DNA from: Ignavibacteria bacterium
GTDB taxonomy: Bacteria > Bacteroidota > Ignavibacteria > UBA10030 > SZUA-254
Length of the DNA stretch: 64,000 bases
Direction of reading: 5' to 3'
NCBI GenBank assembly: GCA_016178625.1
Contig: JACOSX010000135.1
Coordinates: 7,130 to 71,129, forward strand
The position numbers and the translations under genes were made by a program. This document shows, piece after piece, positions 3 to 41,955 of the stretch. Each line of letters opens with the position of its first letter. Position 1 is the stretch's first letter. A model generated the notes under the pieces. The model had not been told where the DNA came from. It worked only from the letters and a program-made list of their open reading frames with translations, and did no database searches.

Positions 3-359
3 AAGAAAGCGTACAAAGTCGGACTTGATAAGCCTCTTACCTCCTCACATGCCGAGCAGTTAGCGAATGGGATTCGACTTTCGGATGGGAAGACTGAGCC
101 TGCCGAAGTCTATTCGATTCCTGGAGGGAAGAATAAGCTGATCGGCATTGTTATCCATGAGGGGAAAAATCGTCAGGTACACCGGATGTTCGAAGCACTT
201 GGATATCAAGTGGAGAAACTTGACCGTGTCGCATACGCTGACATTACCTATGAAGGATTGAAGCGAGGGGGGTGGAGGTACTTGACGAAAGGGGAGGTGA
301 GGAGGTTGAAGGAAGTGGTTGAGGAGGAAGACAATGGAAAAGTAAAAATGCAAAATTAA
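3..359 (+). CDS. Pseudouridine synthase, RsuA/RluB family, C-terminal part (5' end outside window)
   Basis: Frame 3 reads ...IVIHEGKNRQVHRMFEALGYQVEKLDRVAYADITYEGLKRGGWRYLTKGEVRRLKEVV..., ending at TAA 357-359. GKNRQV(R/H)RMF and G.WR.L are the conserved C-terminal blocks of this family. It is absent from the ORF track because it has no start in the window. Confidence 0.8.
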   Translation, partial: KKAYKVGLDKPLTSSHAEQLANGIRLSDGKTEPAEVYSIPGGKNKLIGIVIHEGKNRQVHRMFEALGYQVEKLDRVAYADITYEGLKRGGWRYLTKGEVRRLKEVVEEEDNGKVKMQN

Positions 360-459: not shown

Positions 460-696
460 ATGGCAAAGGGAGATCCAGCAATGAAATTGACAGCCTTTAT
501 TCGTCCCGATGAGGACGAATACACCGCGATATGCCTAGAGACTGACATCGTGAGCCAGGGGAAAACAGTCCAAGAAGCATTGGACAACTTGGCTGAAGCC
601 GTGGCATTGTACTTATCGGTCATGCCAGAACAACCTATAAGAGATGCACACGTGTTGAATTTCGAAATCTTTAGTAAGAGCGATGAGGATAGATAG
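460..696 (+). CDS. hicB: HicB-family (UPF0150-like) antitoxin, short form
   Basis: 78 aa. YTAICLETDIVSQGKTVQEALDNLAEAVALYL fits the HicB N-terminal fold signature. It overlaps the next ORF by 14 nt. An alternative start is ATG 481. No C-terminal HTH/RHH DNA-binding extension is visible. Confidence 0.7.
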   Translation: MAKGDPAMKLTAFIRPDEDEYTAICLETDIVSQGKTVQEALDNLAEAVALYLSVMPEQPIRDAHVLNFEIFSKSDEDR

Positions 697-1843: not shown

Positions 1844-2977
1844 ATGCACATCCTCGCCTCCCTCGAAAAGGTTATCTATAAGCCTACCCTTTGTGCTCCA
1901 CTTGAAACTTTTACCATAAAAGAATTTCTTTCCGGTGAGGCATTCAGGAGAGCGAGTTTCATTCTGGATTATAGGGGAACGAAAACTGCAATCAGTCTGT
2001 GGCTTTCTCCCAAAAGAACGCGCTCCTACCCATACGCAAGAGTATACGATACAATGGACAAGAGCAAACGCGTAACCATTATTCCATTCATGAAGGACGA
2101 AGGCAAAGATGGCGACAAAGATTTTCTTCAATGGGATTCAGTTTCATTCATGAGCTTACTGGGAGTCTATGTCATCGTCGGTTACTATAAATCTGCAAGA
2201 AAGAATGAGCGAGAACGACAACGAGGGAAGCAAAAAATTACGAAGCAGGAATTTGATTACAAGTTCCTGAAACAAAAGTTAGACGAATTGGATCAATTCA
2301 AGTCGGATGCTTTGCACTGGAATCTCTCGCAACTGGAACAACTGCACGAAGTCGCGGAACGAACCAAGCAATCCTATCTTAGAATTGAAAAGGAGATTGG
2401 AGTCGATTTACACGATCAAAGGGGCATAGAGAAAAGGATTGAAATCCTCAAAGGTGAAGCAGAAGCTTTCAAGAATTTGTCGAGGAAATTGGCTTCAAGC
2501 GCACAGCAACGAGAATTGAAGACGTTACAGCCCAAAGAGCGTCTTGTCGAGGAAAAGGCAACAATCACTATCAAGAATTATTTGGGGGGTGAATATTATT
2601 TGACTGTCGACGAATTGATTATCAGGCAAGATAAAATATTTCTTGTTGAGAAAAAACACAGCGAGAGATCTGCTCTACCGAGCATGAACGACATAAAAGA
2701 TGGCTGCTTGAAGATGATTCTCTTCGCAAATCTCTCCGAAGTTAAAATTGATGGTAAGAAGTTAAAGCATTTTCCAGTTTTGGGATTAACTTCAAATAAA
2801 CACACGGGTTATTGTGATAATTTTTCAGGTGAAGTGAAAGAGGATAAAGTTAAAAAGGTATTTGATGAAGGAAAGCAGAACAAGTTTATCGTCTTCCTGA
2901 TGAACAATTCACAATTTGAACAACAGAAATCCATGATCGACAGATACATCAGTTCCATCAAAGAGCGCAAAGGCTAA
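1844..2977 (+). CDS. Putative cognate restriction endonuclease (family not recognised)
   Basis: 377 aa, starting 5 nt after the MTase stop on the same strand. The C-terminal third contains VD256ELIIRQDKIFLVE269KK271, a candidate PD-(D/E)XK motif. The central region is coiled-coil-like and K/E/Q-rich. The functional call is positional inference. Confidence 0.5.
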   Translation: MHILASLEKVIYKPTLCAPLETFTIKEFLSGEAFRRASFILDYRGTKTAISLWLSPKRTRSYPYARVYDTMDKSKRVTIIPFMKDEGKDGDKDFLQWDSVSFMSLLGVYVIVGYYKSARKNERERQRGKQKITKQEFDYKFLKQKLDELDQFKSDALHWNLSQLEQLHEVAERTKQSYLRIEKEIGVDLHDQRGIEKRIEILKGEAEAFKNLSRKLASSAQQRELKTLQPKERLVEEKATITIKNYLGGEYYLTVDELIIRQDKIFLVEKKHSERSALPSMNDIKDGCLKMILFANLSEVKIDGKKLKHFPVLGLTSNKHTGYCDNFSGEVKEDKVKKVFDEGKQNKFIVFLMNNSQFEQQKSMIDRYISSIKERKG

Positions 2978-3086
2978 TGATTAATCAACAGTATCTCAAG
3001 TTTCTTGAATCAAAATTGGATGATGATCAAAGCTGCGGCGAGTGGGAAAATAAAAAAACCTCAAATCTAAAATCTCCGAGCCTTTC

Positions 3087-4334
3087 TCACCATCTCCTCG
3101 GCACATTCTTCACTGTCCTGACGGTGTCCCGGGCGATCAGAAGTTCTTCGTTGGTGGGAATGACCAAAGCTTTCAACGTTGCGCCTGATGATGATATCTC
3201 TCCTTCTTTGCCATTTATAGTCGCTGAGTTCTTTTTCTTATCCAACCCCAACCTAATGCATTCTAGTCCATCACAAATTCGCTCACGTATGGCGGCGCTG
3301 TTCTCGCCGATGCCACCCGTGAAGACAACGGCATCTGCTCCGCCCATCTCTGCGAGGTATGCACCGATATATTTCTTCACGCGCATGCAGAAGATATCGA
3401 TCGCAAGTCGGGCACGTCGATCTTGCTTCTCGGCTTCCTCGTCGAGAAGCTCGCGCATATCGTTTGTTAAGCCCGACACTCCGAGCAACCCAGACTGTTT
3501 ATTCAGCATCGTATCAATCTCGCGAACGGTCATGCCTTCTTTGTTTCGAATAAACTCGATGAGCGATGGGTCCATATCGCCTCCGCGCGTTCCCATTACC
3601 AATCCTTCCAGAGGTGTGAAGCCCATCGATGTATCCATCGAATTGCCGTTCTTGATCGCGCACGCCGAGCACCCGTTGCCGAGGTGAAGCGTGATGATGT
3701 TCGTCTCTTCGCGCTTCAATCCCATAATCTGTCGGTATCGATAGGCAACATACCGGTGCGAGGTACCGTGAAACCCGTATCGTCGTATGCGATGTCTGCG
3801 GTAGAGCTGATAAGGAATCGCATACAGGTAGGAAGTCTCCGGCATCGTCGAGTGGAACGCCGTGTCGAACACAGCGACTTGCGGAACGCCCGGACCGAGT
3901 AACTCCCGTGCGGCATGAATGCCCTTGAGATTGGCAGGATTGTGCAGCGGTGCAAGCTCGATGCTGTCCTCGATCTGGGAAATCACTGCATCATCGATCA
4001 TCACAGATCGTGTAAATTTCTCACCGCCGTGAACGACACGGTGACCAACTGCATGGATACCAGCTAACGAGTTGATGTTTGAAATCTTTGAGTCCGGAGA
4101 GATCATCCATCGGAGGATGTAATCAATTGCATCACGATGATCGCGAAGTGGCTCTGCTCTCCGGATTTTTGCTTGACCTTCAACTTCCAGAGTGATGAGC
4201 GCCTGTCCGACGACGCGTTCGATCAATCCTCCAGCTAAACGTTTATCGGCATTCTTCTCGATCAGATCGAGATCAGTCTCGATGATCTGAAATTTTACAG
4301 AGGAGGACCCGCAATTCAAAACGAGAATATTCAT
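3087..4334 (-). CDS. ackA: Acetate kinase
   Basis: MNILVLNCGSSSVKFQ... is the canonical N-terminus. HRVVHGG, GFHGTSH and the TNEE..IA C-terminal blocks are present. I start at the internal ATG (4334) rather than the ORF-track start 4400. Confidence 0.95.
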   Translation of the reverse strand: MNILVLNCGSSSVKFQIIETDLDLIEKNADKRLAGGLIERVVGQALITLEVEGQAKIRRAEPLRDHRDAIDYILRWMISPDSKISNINSLAGIHAVGHRVVHGGEKFTRSVMIDDAVISQIEDSIELAPLHNPANLKGIHAARELLGPGVPQVAVFDTAFHSTMPETSYLYAIPYQLYRRHRIRRYGFHGTSHRYVAYRYRQIMGLKREETNIITLHLGNGCSACAIKNGNSMDTSMGFTPLEGLVMGTRGGDMDPSLIEFIRNKEGMTVREIDTMLNKQSGLLGVSGLTNDMRELLDEEAEKQDRRARLAIDIFCMRVKKYIGAYLAEMGGADAVVFTGGIGENSAAIRERICDGLECIRLGLDKKKNSATINGKEGEISSSGATLKALVIPTNEELLIARDTVRTVKNVPRRW

Positions 4335-36274: not shown

Positions 36275-37321
36275 ATGAGATATCCTCAAGTTCGGTCTTC
36301 ATGGTTTGTGGTTGTGGTACTGGCAATTGTCATTGCTTCGTCGATGTTGTATTGGACAGGTTGCGGCGAGAAGCAAGAGACCAGCAGCGGTCCCACAGTG
36401 ACAAGCCAACAGGTGACAACGCTCGCTAAGGGGAATCCGCAGGTAGAAGCGGTCATGTCAGTTCAGGAACGCCACACCGGCGAATTGATGTCGAAGCCCG
36501 GTGTTGTAGGCACTGGTGTAGGAGCCGACGTAAGTGGTCGTCCTGTTCTGCTCATCCTGACGAAGCAAGAAGGTGTTGGCGGTTTGCCGACAATGATCGA
36601 GGGAATACCGACGCGCGTCGATGTTGTCGGTGAAGTGCACGCTATGGCGGGTGGCGGTTTCAAAGGAACGTATCGACCCGTACCGGCTGGCGTGAGTGTC
36701 GGGAACGATAATGAGTGTGCCGCAGGCACGATCGGGTGCACGGTGTTGAAGGGTGGAGTGCACTACGCGCTCAGCAACAACCATGTCTTCGCTCGTGAGA
36801 ATGCTGCCTCCATCGGTGAGCGGATCGATCAGCCCGGTCGGTACGATGGCCATCCAATTTGCTCGCAAACCGGTCAAGTGGCGACGCTCTCGGCATTCAA
36901 TACAATCAATTTCTCAGGTGGAAACAACACGTTCGATGCTGCGATTGCTCAGTACACCACAAGCGATGTCTGTTCGATGGCCAATAACCTCTACACGCCG
37001 AGCAGCACGACCGTGGCTCCGAGTGTCGGGCTGGCGGTGAAGAAGGTCGGGCGCACGTCCGGTCTGACCCACGGTACGATTGCCGGAATCAACGTTTCGA
37101 TTGACGTCGATTACGGCGGTGGAAGGATTGCGCATTTCGTTAATCAGATCTATGTCGCTAGTACGTTCATTCGTTCCGGCGATTCTGGCTCGCTCATGGT
37201 GACAGACAACGCCAATGCGAATCCCGTCGGCTTGGATTTTGCCGGTGGAAGCAGCTCGTCGTTTGCCAATCCAATTGGACCAGTGCTGTCGTTCTTTAAC
37301 GTCACCGTCTGCAGCCAGTAA
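36275..37321 (+). CDS. Secreted/lipoprotein chymotrypsin-fold (S1, alpha-lytic-like) serine protease with N-terminal pro-like domain
   Basis: Signal plus Cys (LYWTGC). Candidate triad: LSNNHVF (His), NTFDAAIAQ (Asp), RSGDSGSLMV (Ser). VKKVGRTSGLTHGTI is the typical pre-Ser block. Confidence 0.75.
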   Translation: MRYPQVRSSWFVVVVLAIVIASSMLYWTGCGEKQETSSGPTVTSQQVTTLAKGNPQVEAVMSVQERHTGELMSKPGVVGTGVGADVSGRPVLLILTKQEGVGGLPTMIEGIPTRVDVVGEVHAMAGGGFKGTYRPVPAGVSVGNDNECAAGTIGCTVLKGGVHYALSNNHVFARENAASIGERIDQPGRYDGHPICSQTGQVATLSAFNTINFSGGNNTFDAAIAQYTTSDVCSMANNLYTPSSTTVAPSVGLAVKKVGRTSGLTHGTIAGINVSIDVDYGGGRIAHFVNQIYVASTFIRSGDSGSLMVTDNANANPVGLDFAGGSSSSFANPIGPVLSFFNVTVCSQ

Positions 37322-37353
37322 ACGACGAATCATCATTCTGTTGATGGAACAGT

Positions 37354-37390
37354 GCAGGGGCAGTGCAAAGGCATGCCCCTGCCGTGTTTT
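37354..37390 (+). terminator. Hairpin plus T-run between protease and downstream small gene (terminator/attenuator candidate)
   Basis: GCAGGGGCA (37354-62) pairs with TGCCCCTGC (37374-82), with an 11-nt loop, then CGTGTTTT. Confidence 0.5.
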
Positions 37391-37399
37391 GAGACGTCG

Positions 37400-37720
37400 A
37401 TGATGAAACCACTTCTTGTCGCGATCGTTGGTGCGATGACGATCGCAATGAACGTAAACGGTCTTCCAATGCAGCACGAAAAAAAATCGATACAGTCCGA
37501 GAAAAGCATCACTCAAGTTCTTAAAGAGCGTACATCTGAGCTGATGTCGATTCACGGTGTCATCGGGACAGGTGAAGGAAGAAAGGACGGCCATCCTTCG
37601 GTGCTCGTTTTCGTCGTGAAAAAGACAAAAGCAATCTCCAGCAAGATCCCGAAGACGCTGGATGGTTATCCGGTCATTGTACGCGAGACCGGCAGAGTAA
37701 AACCGATGAAGTCTCCGTGA
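37400..37720 (+). CDS. Small secreted protein paralogous to the N-terminal (pro-like) domain of the adjacent protease
   Basis: Signal peptide MMKPLLVAIVGAMTIAMNVNG. ERTSELMSIHGVIGTGEGRKDGHPSVLVFVVKK...IPKTLDGYPVIVRETGRV aligns by eye with the protease segment ERHTGELMSKPGVVGTGVGADVSGRPVLLILTKQ...LPTMIEGIPTRVDVVGEV. Confidence 0.55.
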   Translation: MMKPLLVAIVGAMTIAMNVNGLPMQHEKKSIQSEKSITQVLKERTSELMSIHGVIGTGEGRKDGHPSVLVFVVKKTKAISSKIPKTLDGYPVIVRETGRVKPMKSP

Positions 37721-37770
37721 CTATTAGAGAGGTACGGTATGAGAATCCTGACCGTTATTTTTTGAACAAA

Positions 37771-37809
37771 GTCCCGAAGGTCCGAAGGAATCCCTTCGGG
37801 ACTTCGGAC
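37771..37809. repeat. GC-rich nested hairpin (GTCCCGAAGG / CCTTCGGGAC)
   Basis: A perfect 10-bp stem pairs 37771-80 with 37793-802. An overlapping alternative stem pairs GTCCGAAG (37780-87) with CTTCGGAC (37802-09). Confidence 0.6.
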
Positions 37810-38182
37810 ACTTCGTTCAGAATGACACCCTTTTCTTTTTGGACAGCCTCAGAATTTTCCTCCCCCTCAATGAGCGGGAGTGTCCCGATACATCGGGGCG
37901 AGGGGGTCATAAAAGCCATCGCCATAAGCCATGGTAGGTTACTATGGTATTACACCGGGAGTTCTTCTCGTATCGGCGTGTCAGGTGTGAGGCGAGCAGC
38001 ACTTGATGGGAACACCCATCGATGAAGTTCTGAGAAAGAAAACAACAACACCTGCGTGCAGCCCGCGGCTGCCTTCGGTAGAATGCAGCCAATCCCGTCC
38101 GGAAAGTGCGGAACAGGACAAGGTATTGCGTTATCCCGTGGTGTTAGATATTGCTATCTGACACTGACTGAGTGATCGTCAT

Positions 38183-38350
38183 GTGTCAGGTGGGAAGAGA
38201 GTGTCCGAGAACTGGTGCGTCATTGCGAGAACGACGCAGTCGGTCGAAGCAATCAGACTAGACAATGCACTTTTTCAAAGTATGTCAGATTGCTTCGGCA
38301 CTTCGTGCCTCGCAAAGACAGTTCTTGGATAGTCTCGGAAGACCTGACAC
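38183..38350. repeat. ~170-nt imperfect palindrome (MITE-like or structured RNA) built on CATTGCGAG...GAAGCAATC motifs
   Basis: Five perfectly complementary blocks: GTGTCAGG/CCTGACAC (38183-90/38343-50), TCCGAGA/TCTCGGA (38204-10/38333-39), AGAACTG/CAGTTCT (38208-14/38319-25), TTGCGAG/CTCGCAA (38223-29/38309-15), GAAGCAATC/GATTGCTTC (38246-54/38288-96). Confidence 0.7.
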
Positions 38351-38439
38351 CACAATGAAAACACGCTCTACGAGTCTTCCACTCCCCACGGGTCTACGAC
38401 CTCGTAGAGGATCGTAGATAGACAATGCGTATATAAATT

Positions 38440-38460
38440 GTTAGGCGAAATGCGCTTGCA
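38440..38460. repeat. Left inverted repeat bracketing gene 38487..39371
   Basis: GTTAGGCGAAATGCGCTTGCA. Its reverse complement matches 39377-39397 at 20 of 21 positions. It lies 26 nt upstream of the ATG. Confidence 0.85.
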
Positions 38461-38486
38461 ACTCAATTTTTGAAAAGCAATCAATC

Positions 38487-39371
38487 ATGATCAAAAGCAT
38501 ATCCACTCGAATCGCGATTTTGCTCGGCAGTCTCATGTTATTCTTTGGAACAAGCCCTTGCCAACGGTCTAAGTCATTCAAAAACTATGATGAAGCGAAG
38601 GAAGTAGCGTTATCGACGCACAAATTCATATTTGTGACGTTTGAGACGGACGCGGCTGAAGATTTTAATCGAGTAATGTCATCCGGGCCTTCGCCCACCG
38701 GAATCTATCATGCAACTATTAAAGGAGCACCTTGTAGTAATTTTATTCCGCCAGAAGGGTTGGATCAAAATTTCGTGTTCCTCTTGATCCCATACGATGC
38801 AGGATTCGCTCTGCGCAGCAAATATTATTCAGACGATAAAACAGCTTTAGTTTTGGATGGATTCGGCAACGAGCTATATGTTGAAGTCTGCAAAGGCCGA
38901 GATAAGTTGATCCCAATCTTGCAGTCACTACCACAAGATGCCTCCAAGTATTATGGGCTTCTGAGTAGTTTAGTGGATCATCCCGACTCAATAAATCTAA
39001 AAATGGCCATAGCAGATCTCTGCCAACTCTACCGGGCTACGACTGCAAGTAACAAATACTACGGTGAGATTCTAAACTCCCGACAAACTGAGAAAGATTC
39101 CACTCTCTCTGATCACGTTCGATCACACGTGGCATTGAACGCATTCTTAGATTATGACTATAACAACGCTGAGGATCTCTTCGCCAACCATATCAAAGAT
39201 TATCCTCATAGTTCCGAGCGCCCAATGCAGCTGTTTCTACTCACAAAAATCGAAGTTATCAAGAAACACAAAGACGATGCAATTCAATATTTGAAGCTGC
39301 TACAAACTGAATTTCCGAATGATCAACATACCACCTGGGCGAAAAATCTGCTTGATCAATACAAGGAGTGA
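38487..39371 (+). CDS. Secreted protein: degenerate thioredoxin-like N-domain (no CxxC) plus C-terminal TPR-like helices
   Basis: Signal peptide (possible lipobox FGTSPC). YDEAKEVALSTHKFIFVTFETD resembles thioredoxin-like/DUF255 N-termini but lacks cysteines. The C-terminal helical repeats are TPR-like. The call is tentative. Confidence 0.45.
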   Translation: MIKSISTRIAILLGSLMLFFGTSPCQRSKSFKNYDEAKEVALSTHKFIFVTFETDAAEDFNRVMSSGPSPTGIYHATIKGAPCSNFIPPEGLDQNFVFLLIPYDAGFALRSKYYSDDKTALVLDGFGNELYVEVCKGRDKLIPILQSLPQDASKYYGLLSSLVDHPDSINLKMAIADLCQLYRATTASNKYYGEILNSRQTEKDSTLSDHVRSHVALNAFLDYDYNNAEDLFANHIKDYPHSSERPMQLFLLTKIEVIKKHKDDAIQYLKLLQTEFPNDQHTTWAKNLLDQYKE

Positions 39372-39376
39372 GTCGG

Positions 39377-39397
39377 TGCAAGCGCACTTCGCCTAAC
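39377..39397. repeat. Right inverted repeat bracketing gene 38487..39371
   Basis: TGCAAGCGCACTTCGCCTAAC, starting 5 nt after the stop codon. It is the partner of 38440-38460. Confidence 0.85.
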
Positions 39398-40050: not shown

Positions 40051-40116
40051 AAAGCGGCAACACGACGCGCTCAGTCGAATCTTGGAAGCTCAACGCTTCC
40101 TCTCACAATAAATTGA

Positions 40117-40163
40117 TCCATTTGGAGTTTGCCACACTATTGTGTATTTTTATGAATCGTTTG
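40117..40163 (+). promoter_or_regulatory. Copy 1 of a conserved intergenic element containing a sigma70-like promoter (TTGCCA-N16/17-TATGAAT)
   Basis: TCCATTTGGAGTTTGCCACACTATTGTGTATTTTTATGAATCGTTTG. By hand alignment, 38 of 47 positions are identical to 41623-41668. It lies ~100 nt upstream of ATG 40265. Confidence 0.5.
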
Positions 40164-41575: not shown

Positions 41576-41622
41576 AATAGTACACAATGGTGGGAAGTCG
41601 GAGCTTGCTCACCATGAACTGG

Positions 41623-41668
41623 TCCATTTGGAGTTCGCAACACTATTCCGTACTTTTACAATCGTTGT
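41623..41668 (+). promoter_or_regulatory. Copy 2 of the conserved intergenic element (TTCGCA-N17-TACAAT)
   Basis: TCCATTTGGAGTTCGCAACACTATTCCGTACTTTTACAATCGTTGTG. Weaker similarity to copy 1 extends ~35 nt upstream and ~15 nt downstream. Confidence 0.5.
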
Positions 41669-41743
41669 GCAATTCTATCAACACATCAAATAAAAAGTTG
41701 GTACCAGAAAATCAGCATGAAGAACTAATTATTTTTTTATAAC

Positions 41744-41923
41744 TGATGTTACGCGGACGAGGTGTATTTGAAAAGTTCTAATAATCGTAGCTGCTTTCCT
41801 AAGTATGACCTCTCCTATAATCCTCCCCTCATAGGGGAGGATGTTAAAACATCCTCTCCTCACAGGAGAGGGTTAGGGGTGAGGTCCAAAAAAGGAATCA
41901 ATCTTTGATTCTGCGTAACATCA
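41744..41923. repeat. 180-nt non-coding module bounded by a perfect 11-nt inverted repeat (TGATGTTACGC / GCGTAACATCA) and containing twin 8-bp hairpins
   Basis: The inverted repeat is at 41744-54 and 41913-23, with flanks extending it imperfectly. The internal hairpins are CCTCCCCT-cat-AGGGGAGG (41822-40) and CCTCTCCT-cac-AGGAGAGG (41853-71), followed by GTTAGGGGTGAGGT. Confidence 0.7.
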
Positions 41924-41955
41924 ATTAATAAACCAAATCCCTCTTGGAGAAACTC

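Follow-up and report, generated by a model that had tools for sequence, protein, structure and literature searches.

The CGTC-tagged repetitive extragenic palindromic (REP) sequences occur in Proteobacteria, Chlorobi, Bacteroidetes and other groups, mostly as dimers, and are described as sequences that 'lack a dedicated transposase'; their superfamily includes dRS3 of Neisseria as well as RPE-4 and RPE-6 of Rickettsia (Di Nocera, De Gregorio and Rocco, 2013, BMC Genomics 14:522, PMC3733652). In many phyla, the gene of SsnA, a 94-aa single-domain GIY-YIG protein (cd10448), is flanked by the dRS3-containing NTS hairpin (CGTCATTCCCGCG...GGGAATCYRG) or by SRM hairpins related to it (Chenal et al., 2025, Nat Commun 16:2388, PMC11893778). 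SsnA of Neisseria and three homologues each recognise the hairpin that belongs to them, and their cleavage is limited to single-stranded DNA just upstream of that hairpin; the NTS-ssnA-NTS layout has been likened to an insertion sequence (PMC11893778). The pairing of a hairpin unit with a nuclease is already published in the form of the CGTC-tagged REPs (Di Nocera et al., 2013) and of the Ssn nucleases with their SRM hairpins (Chenal et al., 2025). Here we compare with these systems a 766-nt spacer at positions 37721-38486 of a 64,000-nt stretch of DNA from an Ignavibacteria bacterium, hereafter the window, and the dispersed hairpin repeats that make up about half of it.

The window corresponds to positions 7130-71129 of contig C129 in a metagenome-assembled genome (G000; 3.36 Mb, 177 contigs, 48.6% G+C). 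The spacer is flanked by a 122-aa open reading frame (ORF) upstream (37352-37720) and a 294-aa ORF downstream (38487-39371), both on the plus strand. An earlier inspection of the letters alone (the sequence-only reading) had singled out the spacer as unusually long and packed with hairpins. The median gene gap in the window is 62 nt by a crude ORF-based call, against 766 nt here, and all six hairpins then listed are present in place or nearby. The spacer had also been denied any credible ORF; a 102-aa ORF with a GTG start does occupy 37717-38025, but it spans two repeat copies and has no Pfam match, and eight other small ORFs gave no Pfam match either.

Searching the spacer against its own genome with BLAST assigned every listed hairpin, except two located in 37944-38182, to a multi-copy repeat family. 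About 55% of the spacer consists of copies of four dispersed families, A (37769-37851), C (37852-37943), D (38183-38350) and E (38366-38453), and the approximately 40 further own-genome matches all fall within these four blocks. The copies elsewhere in the genome sit in differing flanks. The 141-nt core of D is 94% identical to C13:4143-4283, and for A the copies at C176:49-124 and C112:38435-38510 reach 98% identity over 58 nt; such near-identical copies on other contigs indicate recent duplication. Pieces of the spacer, namely D, its hairpin unit, the CCGAAGG hairpin, the A terminus and the E core, were found in 52 of the 151 genomes of the order, counting G000, and no homologue of the spacer as a whole was found among them. 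Same-family clusters are present at C2 16.8-24.4 kb, C13 3.9-4.3 kb, C18 27.9-32.2 kb, C69 and C88. In the window, repeats were found only in this spacer and in two gaps close to it, and in none of nine other long gaps.

The spacer is very probably noncoding DNA in which hairpin repeats from at least four small nonautonomous families (A, C, D and E) have accumulated and partly decayed around approximately 240 nt of unique sequence. The sequence-only reading had offered 'a graveyard or landing pad of miniature mobile elements' as one explanation, and the dispersed copies, here and in other genomes of the order, support it, 'mobile' being our interpretation of near-identical sequences at scattered sites. 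By analogy, the spacer is the Ignavibacteria counterpart of the enterobacterial clusters of bacterial interspersed mosaic elements (BIMEs) and of the mosaics of dRS3 and neisserial intergenic mosaic elements (NIMEs) in Neisseria. The locus belongs with the REP/BIME/NIME-type mosaics and the Ssn-type hairpin dimers already known, and it has two variant features, a mismatch to the published pattern and larger shells around the hairpins.

Family D is a 168-nt palindrome (38183-38350) of two inverted hairpin units with their heads outward and a 25-nt centre. The long palindrome reported from the letters alone was recovered with arms at 38183-38214/38319-38350 and inner blocks at 38219-38229/38309-38319 and 38245-38258/38284-38297. 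The left unit (38218-38258, plus strand) has a CGTC head at 38218-38221 followed by ATTGC-GAG, a variable inner hairpin, GAA-GCAAT-C and an AGAC tail. The right unit (38284-38321) is inverted, with a TGTC head on the minus strand (38318-38321), a GGCAC-ttcg-GTGCC inner hairpin and one mismatch in the conserved block; the shared motif that had been attributed to both palindrome arms is thus present, but the right arm carries CTCGCAAAGAC for CTCGCAATGAC. The D palindrome is an inverted pair of the CGTC/TGTC-headed unit GTC-ATTGC-GAG-(variable hairpin)-GAA-GCAAT-C-YGAC. The unit has the build of the CGTC-tagged REPs and Ssn-related motifs, and hairpins of this kind are what the small single-domain Ssn nucleases recognise.

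The predicted minimum free energy (MFE) of D is -79.8 kcal/mol (z = -8.3). Its outer arms, GTGTCAGGT/ACCTGACAC, vary in sequence between copies while pairing is kept in the copies on C13 and C35, and this conservation of pairing despite sequence change indicates that 38183-38350 are the true limits of the element. Inside the outer arms lies a sub-terminal inverted repeat, GAGAGTGTCCGAGAACTG/CAGTTCTTGGATAGTCTC, related to the GGCTGTCCAAAAAG termini of the elements described below. Other copies of D are located at C18:21564-21694 (74% identity), C158:7048-7134 (81%) and C35:3196-3277, all with different flanks, and a homologue 81% identical is present in another genus (G008).

The unit is also dispersed on its own. 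Copies of the left unit number 11 in the genome when exact and 15 under a slightly relaxed pattern, and the right unit has at least 10 further genome matches, mostly to 38282-38319, at 82-94% identity. Among 14 own-genome copies, the head is CGTC in six, TGTC in two and GGTC, AGTC or TTAC in the other six. Dimers of units are found at C18:32080/32141 and C132:8986/9038, in the type 1 elements described below and in D. The stem of the unit begins with A-T and T-A pairs (ATTGC/GCAAT) and extends for 5 bp; beyond it come an internal loop and a second hairpin, which is variable and 1-50 nt long.

In these respects the unit resembles the CGTC-tagged REPs, which are likewise reported to carry a CGTC/TGTC head, to open their stem with two A-T pairs, to end in a short tail, to occur mostly as inverted dimers and to have no tyrosine transposase (PMC3733652). 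Two features of that group, the CGTC/TGTC tetranucleotide at the end of a palindrome and dispersed multiple copies with inverted dimers, are both seen here. In contrast, the stems of CGTC-tagged REPs are described as 8-9 bp with loops of 4-5 nt (PMC3733652), whereas the outer stem of the unit here is 5 bp, its internal loop is rich in G and A, and a variable hairpin comes second.

We searched species-representative genomes for the pattern GTCATTGCGAG-N(4-30)-GAAGCAATC. The motif CATTGCGAG...GAAGCAATC had been named in the sequence-only reading as a short repeat of many environmental FCB and Nitrospira-type genomes, and it was indeed found in at least 120 stretches from very diverse phyla. Among the matches listed are Alpha- and Gammaproteobacteria, Chloroflexota, Bacteroidota, Cyanobacteria, Patescibacteria, Zixibacteria, Planctomycetota, Desulfobacterota, Firmicutes and Helicobacter, and among these matches the motif often occurs as inverted pairs approximately 25 nt apart. 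The related statement that the repeat produces spurious peptides also held, as ORFs reading through it give ...SLRGAKRRSNP...DCFAALAMT, ...LRYARND... and ...VARND.... Within the order, 67 of the 151 genomes carry 1-188 copies each, and the reversed control gave zero matches everywhere. The inner hairpins of the units comprise 219 distinct sequences in which pairing is often kept, and 31% of them fold better than 95% of their own shuffles.

Units also enclose a gene. At C20:265-558, a 97-aa GIY-YIG gene, the one intact copy in the genome, lies between units at 218-243 (plus strand) and 617-650 (minus strand) with their heads outward. The protein is a bare GIY-YIG domain (Pfam GIY-YIG at residues 5-78, 60 bits); its closest solved structure is the UPF0213 protein BH0048 (1ZG2, E = 3e-4), and it matched no NCBIfam model. 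Homologues of this type are multi-copy in 109 of the 151 genomes of the order, some with stop codons. Of 32 homologous genes in the order, 26 lie no more than 250 nt from a unit, and 18 of them are flanked by units on either side. Units are 10.3 times denser within 200 nt of the gene; the reversed control gave 0 matches. All of five motif-bearing genomes from other phyla encode a homologue (48-68% identity) with adjoining units. The odds ratio for co-occurrence of motif and nuclease in a genome is 7.6, a value drawn from related genomes that are not independent.

Several features are shared with Ssn/SRM. Both have an HGTC head, a stem starting ATT...AAT and a C-Y-R tail; both are multi-copy, mostly intergenic and clustered; both box a single-domain GIY-YIG gene of approximately 95 aa between inverted copies (C20 and the 18 homologues above); and in both, repeat-rich genomes usually carry the gene. 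The locus differs from Ssn/SRM in that the units are of the ATTGC-GAG...GAA-GCAAT form with a variable inner hairpin, measure 26-50 nt and lie inside larger elements with extra terminal inverted repeats. In our full-text literature searches, the letters of the motif retrieved primer matches only, and no paper was found to combine GIY-YIG with the terms REP, REPIN (REP doublet forming hairpin) or RAYT (REP-associated tyrosine transposase).

Some nuclease loci deserve separate mention. In Pedobacter miscanthi (L190, L191 and L192), three paralogous Ssn-like genes are associated with differing unit variants, CATTTCGAG..GAGAAAT, CATTGCGAG..AAGCAAT and CATTCTGAAC..GAAGAAT, which suggests matched enzyme and hairpin specificities within one genome. 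At another locus (L174, G139:C8), a compact unit-gene-unit cassette is located between the end of a histidine-kinase gene and the start of a response-regulator gene, an operon-like pair, with one unit 11 nt ahead of the protein match and the other 21 nt past its end. Two further small GIY-YIG genes of another subtype are present in G000, at C96:15490-15696 and, just beyond the window end, at C129:75744-75941; they adjoin tRNA genes, the 5' part of the tRNA being duplicated on the other side of the gene.

The larger elements share a terminal sequence. A census of GGCTGTCCAAAAAG allowing up to two mismatches gave 56 matches, approximately 35-40 of which were judged to be true termini by reading their flanks. 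These termini enclose at least four types of element with the same terminus and different hairpin contents: type 1, approximately 132 nt with two inverted GTCATTGCGAG...GAAGCAATC units; type 2, equivalent to family A, with GTCATTCTGAG...GAAGAATC units; a further type 3; and type 4 with GTAGAGTCC hairpins. The sub-terminal repeat of D, GAGAGTGTCCGAGAAC, is related to these termini. Like the bacterial MITEs (miniature transposable elements with inverted repeats) Correia, Nezha and Chunjie, the elements measure 66-226 nt, have terminal inverted repeats of 14-17 nt and dozens of termini, and are intergenic and noncoding. Unlike bacterial MITEs, they show no target-site duplication at the 12 complete elements, no insertion sequence with the same ends was found, and one terminus is combined with at least four hairpin contents.

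Family A (37769-37851, minus strand) is the right half of such a type 2 element, which measures 210-226 nt when complete and has GGCTGTCCAAAAAG terminal inverted repeats. It contains a nested CCGAAGG/CCTTCGG hairpin (37769-37809), in which the sequence-only reading had seen a perfect 10-bp GC hairpin at 37771-37802; the hairpin is present, but its stem is a perfect 12 bp (37769-37780/37793-37804), and alternative stems are possible at 37774-37788/37793-37807 and 37780-37787/37802-37809. A half unit, CACTTCGTTCAGAATGAC, follows at 37809-37826 and is the reverse complement of the GTCATTCTGA-type head. The right terminal repeat CTTTTTGGACAGCC at 37835-37848 is followed by TCA, and the left terminus is absent. 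Further copies are located at C2:24064-24137 and C48:40722-40771. The missing left half is supplied in the alignment by full copies running from GGCTGTCCAAAAAG to CTTTTTGGACAGCC at C2:24064-24289, C112:38437-38646 and, up to the contig end, C48:40599-40773.

Family C (37852-37943, plus strand) is a three-hairpin element ending in ...GGTAGKTTACT. Its hairpins are CTCCCCCTC..GAGGGGG enclosing GTCCCGAT-ac-ATCGGGG, followed by CCATCGCC..GGCGATGG, which is decayed in the window copy; the CCCCCTC...GAGGGGG stem around CCGAT-ac-ATCGG that had been noticed from the letters lies at 37864-37906. Copies were found at C100:22370-22442 (90%), C115:2140-2231 (84%) and C113:31261-31349 (80%), with partial copies at C88:33873-33935 and C69:4228-4289. 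The junction GGACAGCC|TCAGRATTTT, where the end of an element with terminal inverted repeats is followed by family C, recurs at C88 and C69. With C directly behind such a terminus in both partial copies as well as in the window, A and C form either a composite or a preferred target.

Family E (38366-38453, plus strand) is a hairpin element of TCTACGA/TCGTAGA heptamers. It starts with CTCTACGAGTC, and the predicted stem at 38366-38374/38401-38409 was verified as CTCTACGAG/CTCGTAGAG; ...GGATCGTAGATAGAC follows at 38408-38422 and the tail reaches approximately 38453. Copies or clusters in the own genome are located at C2:23657-23716, C18:28260-28351, C83:5817-5901, C70, C107 and C112:4664-4721, and eight other clusters of TCTACGA/TCGTAGA heptamers are present. 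The E core (38380-38419) is nearly invariant across other families of the order, with 93-98% identity in G109, G129, G059 and G131. We considered 38393-38453 and its counterpart on C83 as a paralogous upstream region or segmental duplication and rejected this, as the gene that follows on C83 has no relation to the one that follows here and no paralogue of the 294-aa protein exists. A 592-aa ORF of one genus contains the E core in frame (L151 at approximately 1501-1537, G059; L150, G129), reading ...IYDPLRGRRPVGKG...; such an intragenic insertion resembles those reported for REPs and the RPEs of Rickettsia.

Between C and D, the segment 37944-38182 is the only single-copy part of the spacer. 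It contains X (37978-38164), a tract bracketed by GTGTCAGGTG...ATCTGACAC that encloses the GATGGG-aaca-CCCATC hairpin reported earlier (GATGGGaacaCCCATC, 38006-38021). The CTGACAC/GTGTCAG pair of the same reading was confirmed at 38158-38164/38183-38189. GTGTCAG and CTGACAC separated by 40-320 nt occur as a pair twice in the whole genome, both times in this spacer (X and D), and X and the D palindrome share 84% identity over their first 19 nt. X may be an old, decayed D-like element, to judge from these sequence resemblances. No other copy of X was found in the own genome, the 151 genomes of the order contain no homologue apart from two short weak matches, and its ORFs have no Pfam match.

The arrangement can also be compared with REPIN/RAYT pairs and BIME clusters (Bertels and Rainey, 2011, PMC3116915; Nunvar, 2010; Ton-Hoang, 2012), in which inverted dimers likewise form a long hairpin, many gene-less copies coexist with one or few enzyme genes boxed by the dimerised unit, mosaics are formed and no target duplication is made. 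The head here is not GTAG as in REPIN/RAYT, and the enzyme is a GIY-YIG nuclease instead of a Y1 HUH transposase. Five Y1_Tnp matches are present in the genome; of four proteins tested, two score above the NCBIfam REP_Tyr_transpos cut-off. RAYT-like genes are located at C48:35812-36348, C112:42712-43275, C5:34220-34726 and C64 (approximately 2938-3138), each boxed by its own palindromic repeat: GTAGGACAGGATTCCCATCCTGTCC (C48), a AACCTTGCGAAGGTT dimer (C112), TAGAACTCCGACTTC... (C5) and GTGCGACGCACC... (C64). These four genes and their repeats are several separate REP/RAYT pairs in one genome. We tested RAYT as a partner of A, C, D and E and rejected it: the repeats flanking the RAYT-like genes are unrelated to these families, and RAYT proteins had no match at E loci.

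An IS200-like gene at C2:20009-20458 is located between 67-nt direct repeats (92.5% identical; C2:19735-20583) that duplicate the 3' end of the upstream gene. Such direct repeats are unusual, the IS200 family making no target duplication.

NIMEs are a further parallel. The genome paper of N. meningitidis Z2491 reportedly describes them as RS modules separated by dRS3 repeats. Like the spacer, they are intergenic mosaics near surface-protein genes, with several unrelated modules interleaved with CGTC-type hairpins; they differ in phylum and in modules, and the spacer has no known link to phage integration or transformation.

These comparisons are consistent with a mechanism in which each unit would fold on single-stranded DNA, and an Ssn-type nuclease would bind it and make a nick immediately 5' of the head. 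The gene-less dimers (D, type 1 and type 2) could then spread through repair or copying at these nicks, giving rise to a REPIN-like nonautonomous population. Elements would land beside or inside earlier ones, and the spacer would grow by successive landings; A would have been truncated and C would have decayed after landing. Effects on neighboring genes, such as a read-through barrier or protection of mRNA ends, would be by-products. A broader proposal, which we offer tentatively and consider rather unlikely, is that the (GAG)GCTGTCCAAAAAG-ended elements form a modular family in which one terminal stem carries at least four hairpin contents (an Ssn-type GC variant, an Ssn-type CT variant, a GTAG-type and others), with D as a sister. 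If the nuclease encoded on C20 copies the unit-bearing members, they would be the first natural evidence that Ssn/SRM is a copy-and-spread system without target duplication, with a recognition hairpin extending to the cross-phylum ATTGC-GAG...GAA-GCAAT variant missed by the published pattern.

Several results weigh against the main reading of repeat accumulation and its proposed mechanism. Chenal et al. left open whether Ssn spreads its repeats (PMC11893778). Their SRM search pattern, HGTCWYN(0-2)YYVSBRHN(0-5)WNVSBRGN(0-2)RNCYNB, gave 13 matches in the genome and 18 in the reversed control, none of them in the spacer or around the C20 gene. A strong homologue of the nuclease is absent from 7 of 34 motif-rich genomes. 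Target-site duplications were seen at none of 12 complete elements, and no parental or ORF-bearing element with GGCTGTCCAAAAAG ends was found in the assembly. A 694-nt candidate parent (C88:33193-33886) was rejected, as it contains an ordinary phosphatase-like gene. No candidate enzyme can be named for families C and E; the repeats that box the four RAYT-like genes are others. Neither an empty site nor a polymorphism nor an excision product was seen, and no contig joint skipped an element in four DNA runs. Metagenome scans with the downstream protein and with the exact 29-mer of its start gave no match, so that no locus was available for an empty-site comparison. None of the listed exact metagenome contigs spans the palindrome centre (38243-38296).

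One alternative to repeat accumulation is that the host keeps the cluster for a function. As has been proposed for NTS clusters, hairpins cut by Ssn on incoming or replicating single-stranded DNA might limit or steer recombination near genes for secreted proteins, lipoproteins and outer-membrane proteins. The repeat-rich gaps at 37.7-42 kb do flank secreted- or membrane-looking proteins: the 122-aa and 294-aa proteins, which match no Pfam family above its curated threshold, have hydrophobic N-termini, and an outer-membrane beta-barrel domain of Pfam matches a 436-aa protein weakly, below threshold (24.3 bits, cut-off 28.7). NTS clusters are also located around genes for surface proteins in Neisseria (PMC11893778). 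However, the Ssn type is just one of four families in the spacer, the truncated A and the decayed C look neglected and not maintained, and a single locus proves nothing. We consider host maintenance improbable. The 294-aa downstream gene has at most 34% identity to anything within the taxonomic family, and no paralogue of its product was found in the own genome.

A second alternative is that the spacer, which the sequence-only reading had also considered as a large structured RNA, or its unique part (37944-38196) encodes one large structured noncoding RNA or a cis-regulatory leader of the lipoprotein-like gene at 38487-39371. The overall fold is very strong (MFE -303.3 kcal/mol against -231.8 +/- 7.9 in dinucleotide shuffles; z = -9.0; 0 of 20 shuffles as good), and all elements lie upstream of the next gene and on its strand. 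However, the signal is that of individual repeat copies, each also found alone elsewhere. Against mononucleotide shuffles, the z score is -8.3 for the palindrome, -4.9 for 37766-37852, -2.4 for 37853-37943 and -1.7 for 38355-38486, and the single-copy part, without a homologue in the order as described above, folds just weakly better than shuffles (z = -2.1). Rfam gave 0 matches at the gathering threshold in the whole window; a permissive search returned three chance-level matches in the spacer (E 1.8-7.7; 12-18 bits against cut-offs of 58-90), the best scoring 18.1 against 58. A promoter and terminator scan of the spacer found one site of each kind, not above shuffles. A structured RNA is thus very unlikely, and separate repeat copies are the better explanation of the fold.

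Four DNA runs from one groundwater metagenome study carry the stretch as contigs; no RNA run is listed among its carriers. In these runs, contigs break at repeats and the depth spikes there, reaching 185 over A against approximately 9 in its flanks and 27-48 over the right arm of D; several repeat copies lie at contig ends, and many contigs of the genome end in these repeats. That the spacer is partly an assembly artefact, with the contig mis-joined through shared repeats or the palindrome, has scarcely any likelihood: 177 contigs, many with such ends, the missing exact contig over the palindrome centre and the lack of cover at 38326-38379 in the run that covers the stretch best speak for it, but exact contigs from independent runs (37300-37822, 37802-38243, 38296-38437 and 38410-38900) bridge the gene-to-A, A-to-C, C-to-X, X-to-D, D-to-E and E-to-gene junctions with zero differences, and the complete D palindrome is also present on C13.

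As a repeat mosaic, the locus demonstrates no new principle. It adds an example of the Ignavibacteria type in which Ssn-type hairpins lie within larger composite elements. As the hairpin variant is present in many phyla but missed by the published pattern, a pattern-based survey would undercount the system. Gene callers turn such clusters into false small proteins, as with the 102-aa ORF here, and such repeats break metagenome assemblies.

Other repeats lie close to the spacer. A 21-nt inverted repeat (left arm 38440-38460, right arm 39377-39397; 20 of 21 positions complementary) boxes the 294-aa gene, the left arm overlapping the tail of E and the right arm lying just past the gene. Its ends, GTTAGGC...GCCTAAC, resemble the core sites of integron attC (GTTRRRY/RYYYAAC), whereas the layout is unlike attC. 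A 60-nt block (82% identical, ...TCCATTTGGAGTT.GC.ACACTATT...) is repeated at 40102-40161 and 41608-41666, upstream of two successive genes, and may be a shared promoter or operator. At 41742-41927, the window contains a repeat cluster of another family with CCTCCCCTCATAGGGGAGG and CCTCTCCTCACAGGAGAGG hairpins, copies of which are present on C113 (97%), C69, C64, C12, C143 and other contigs.

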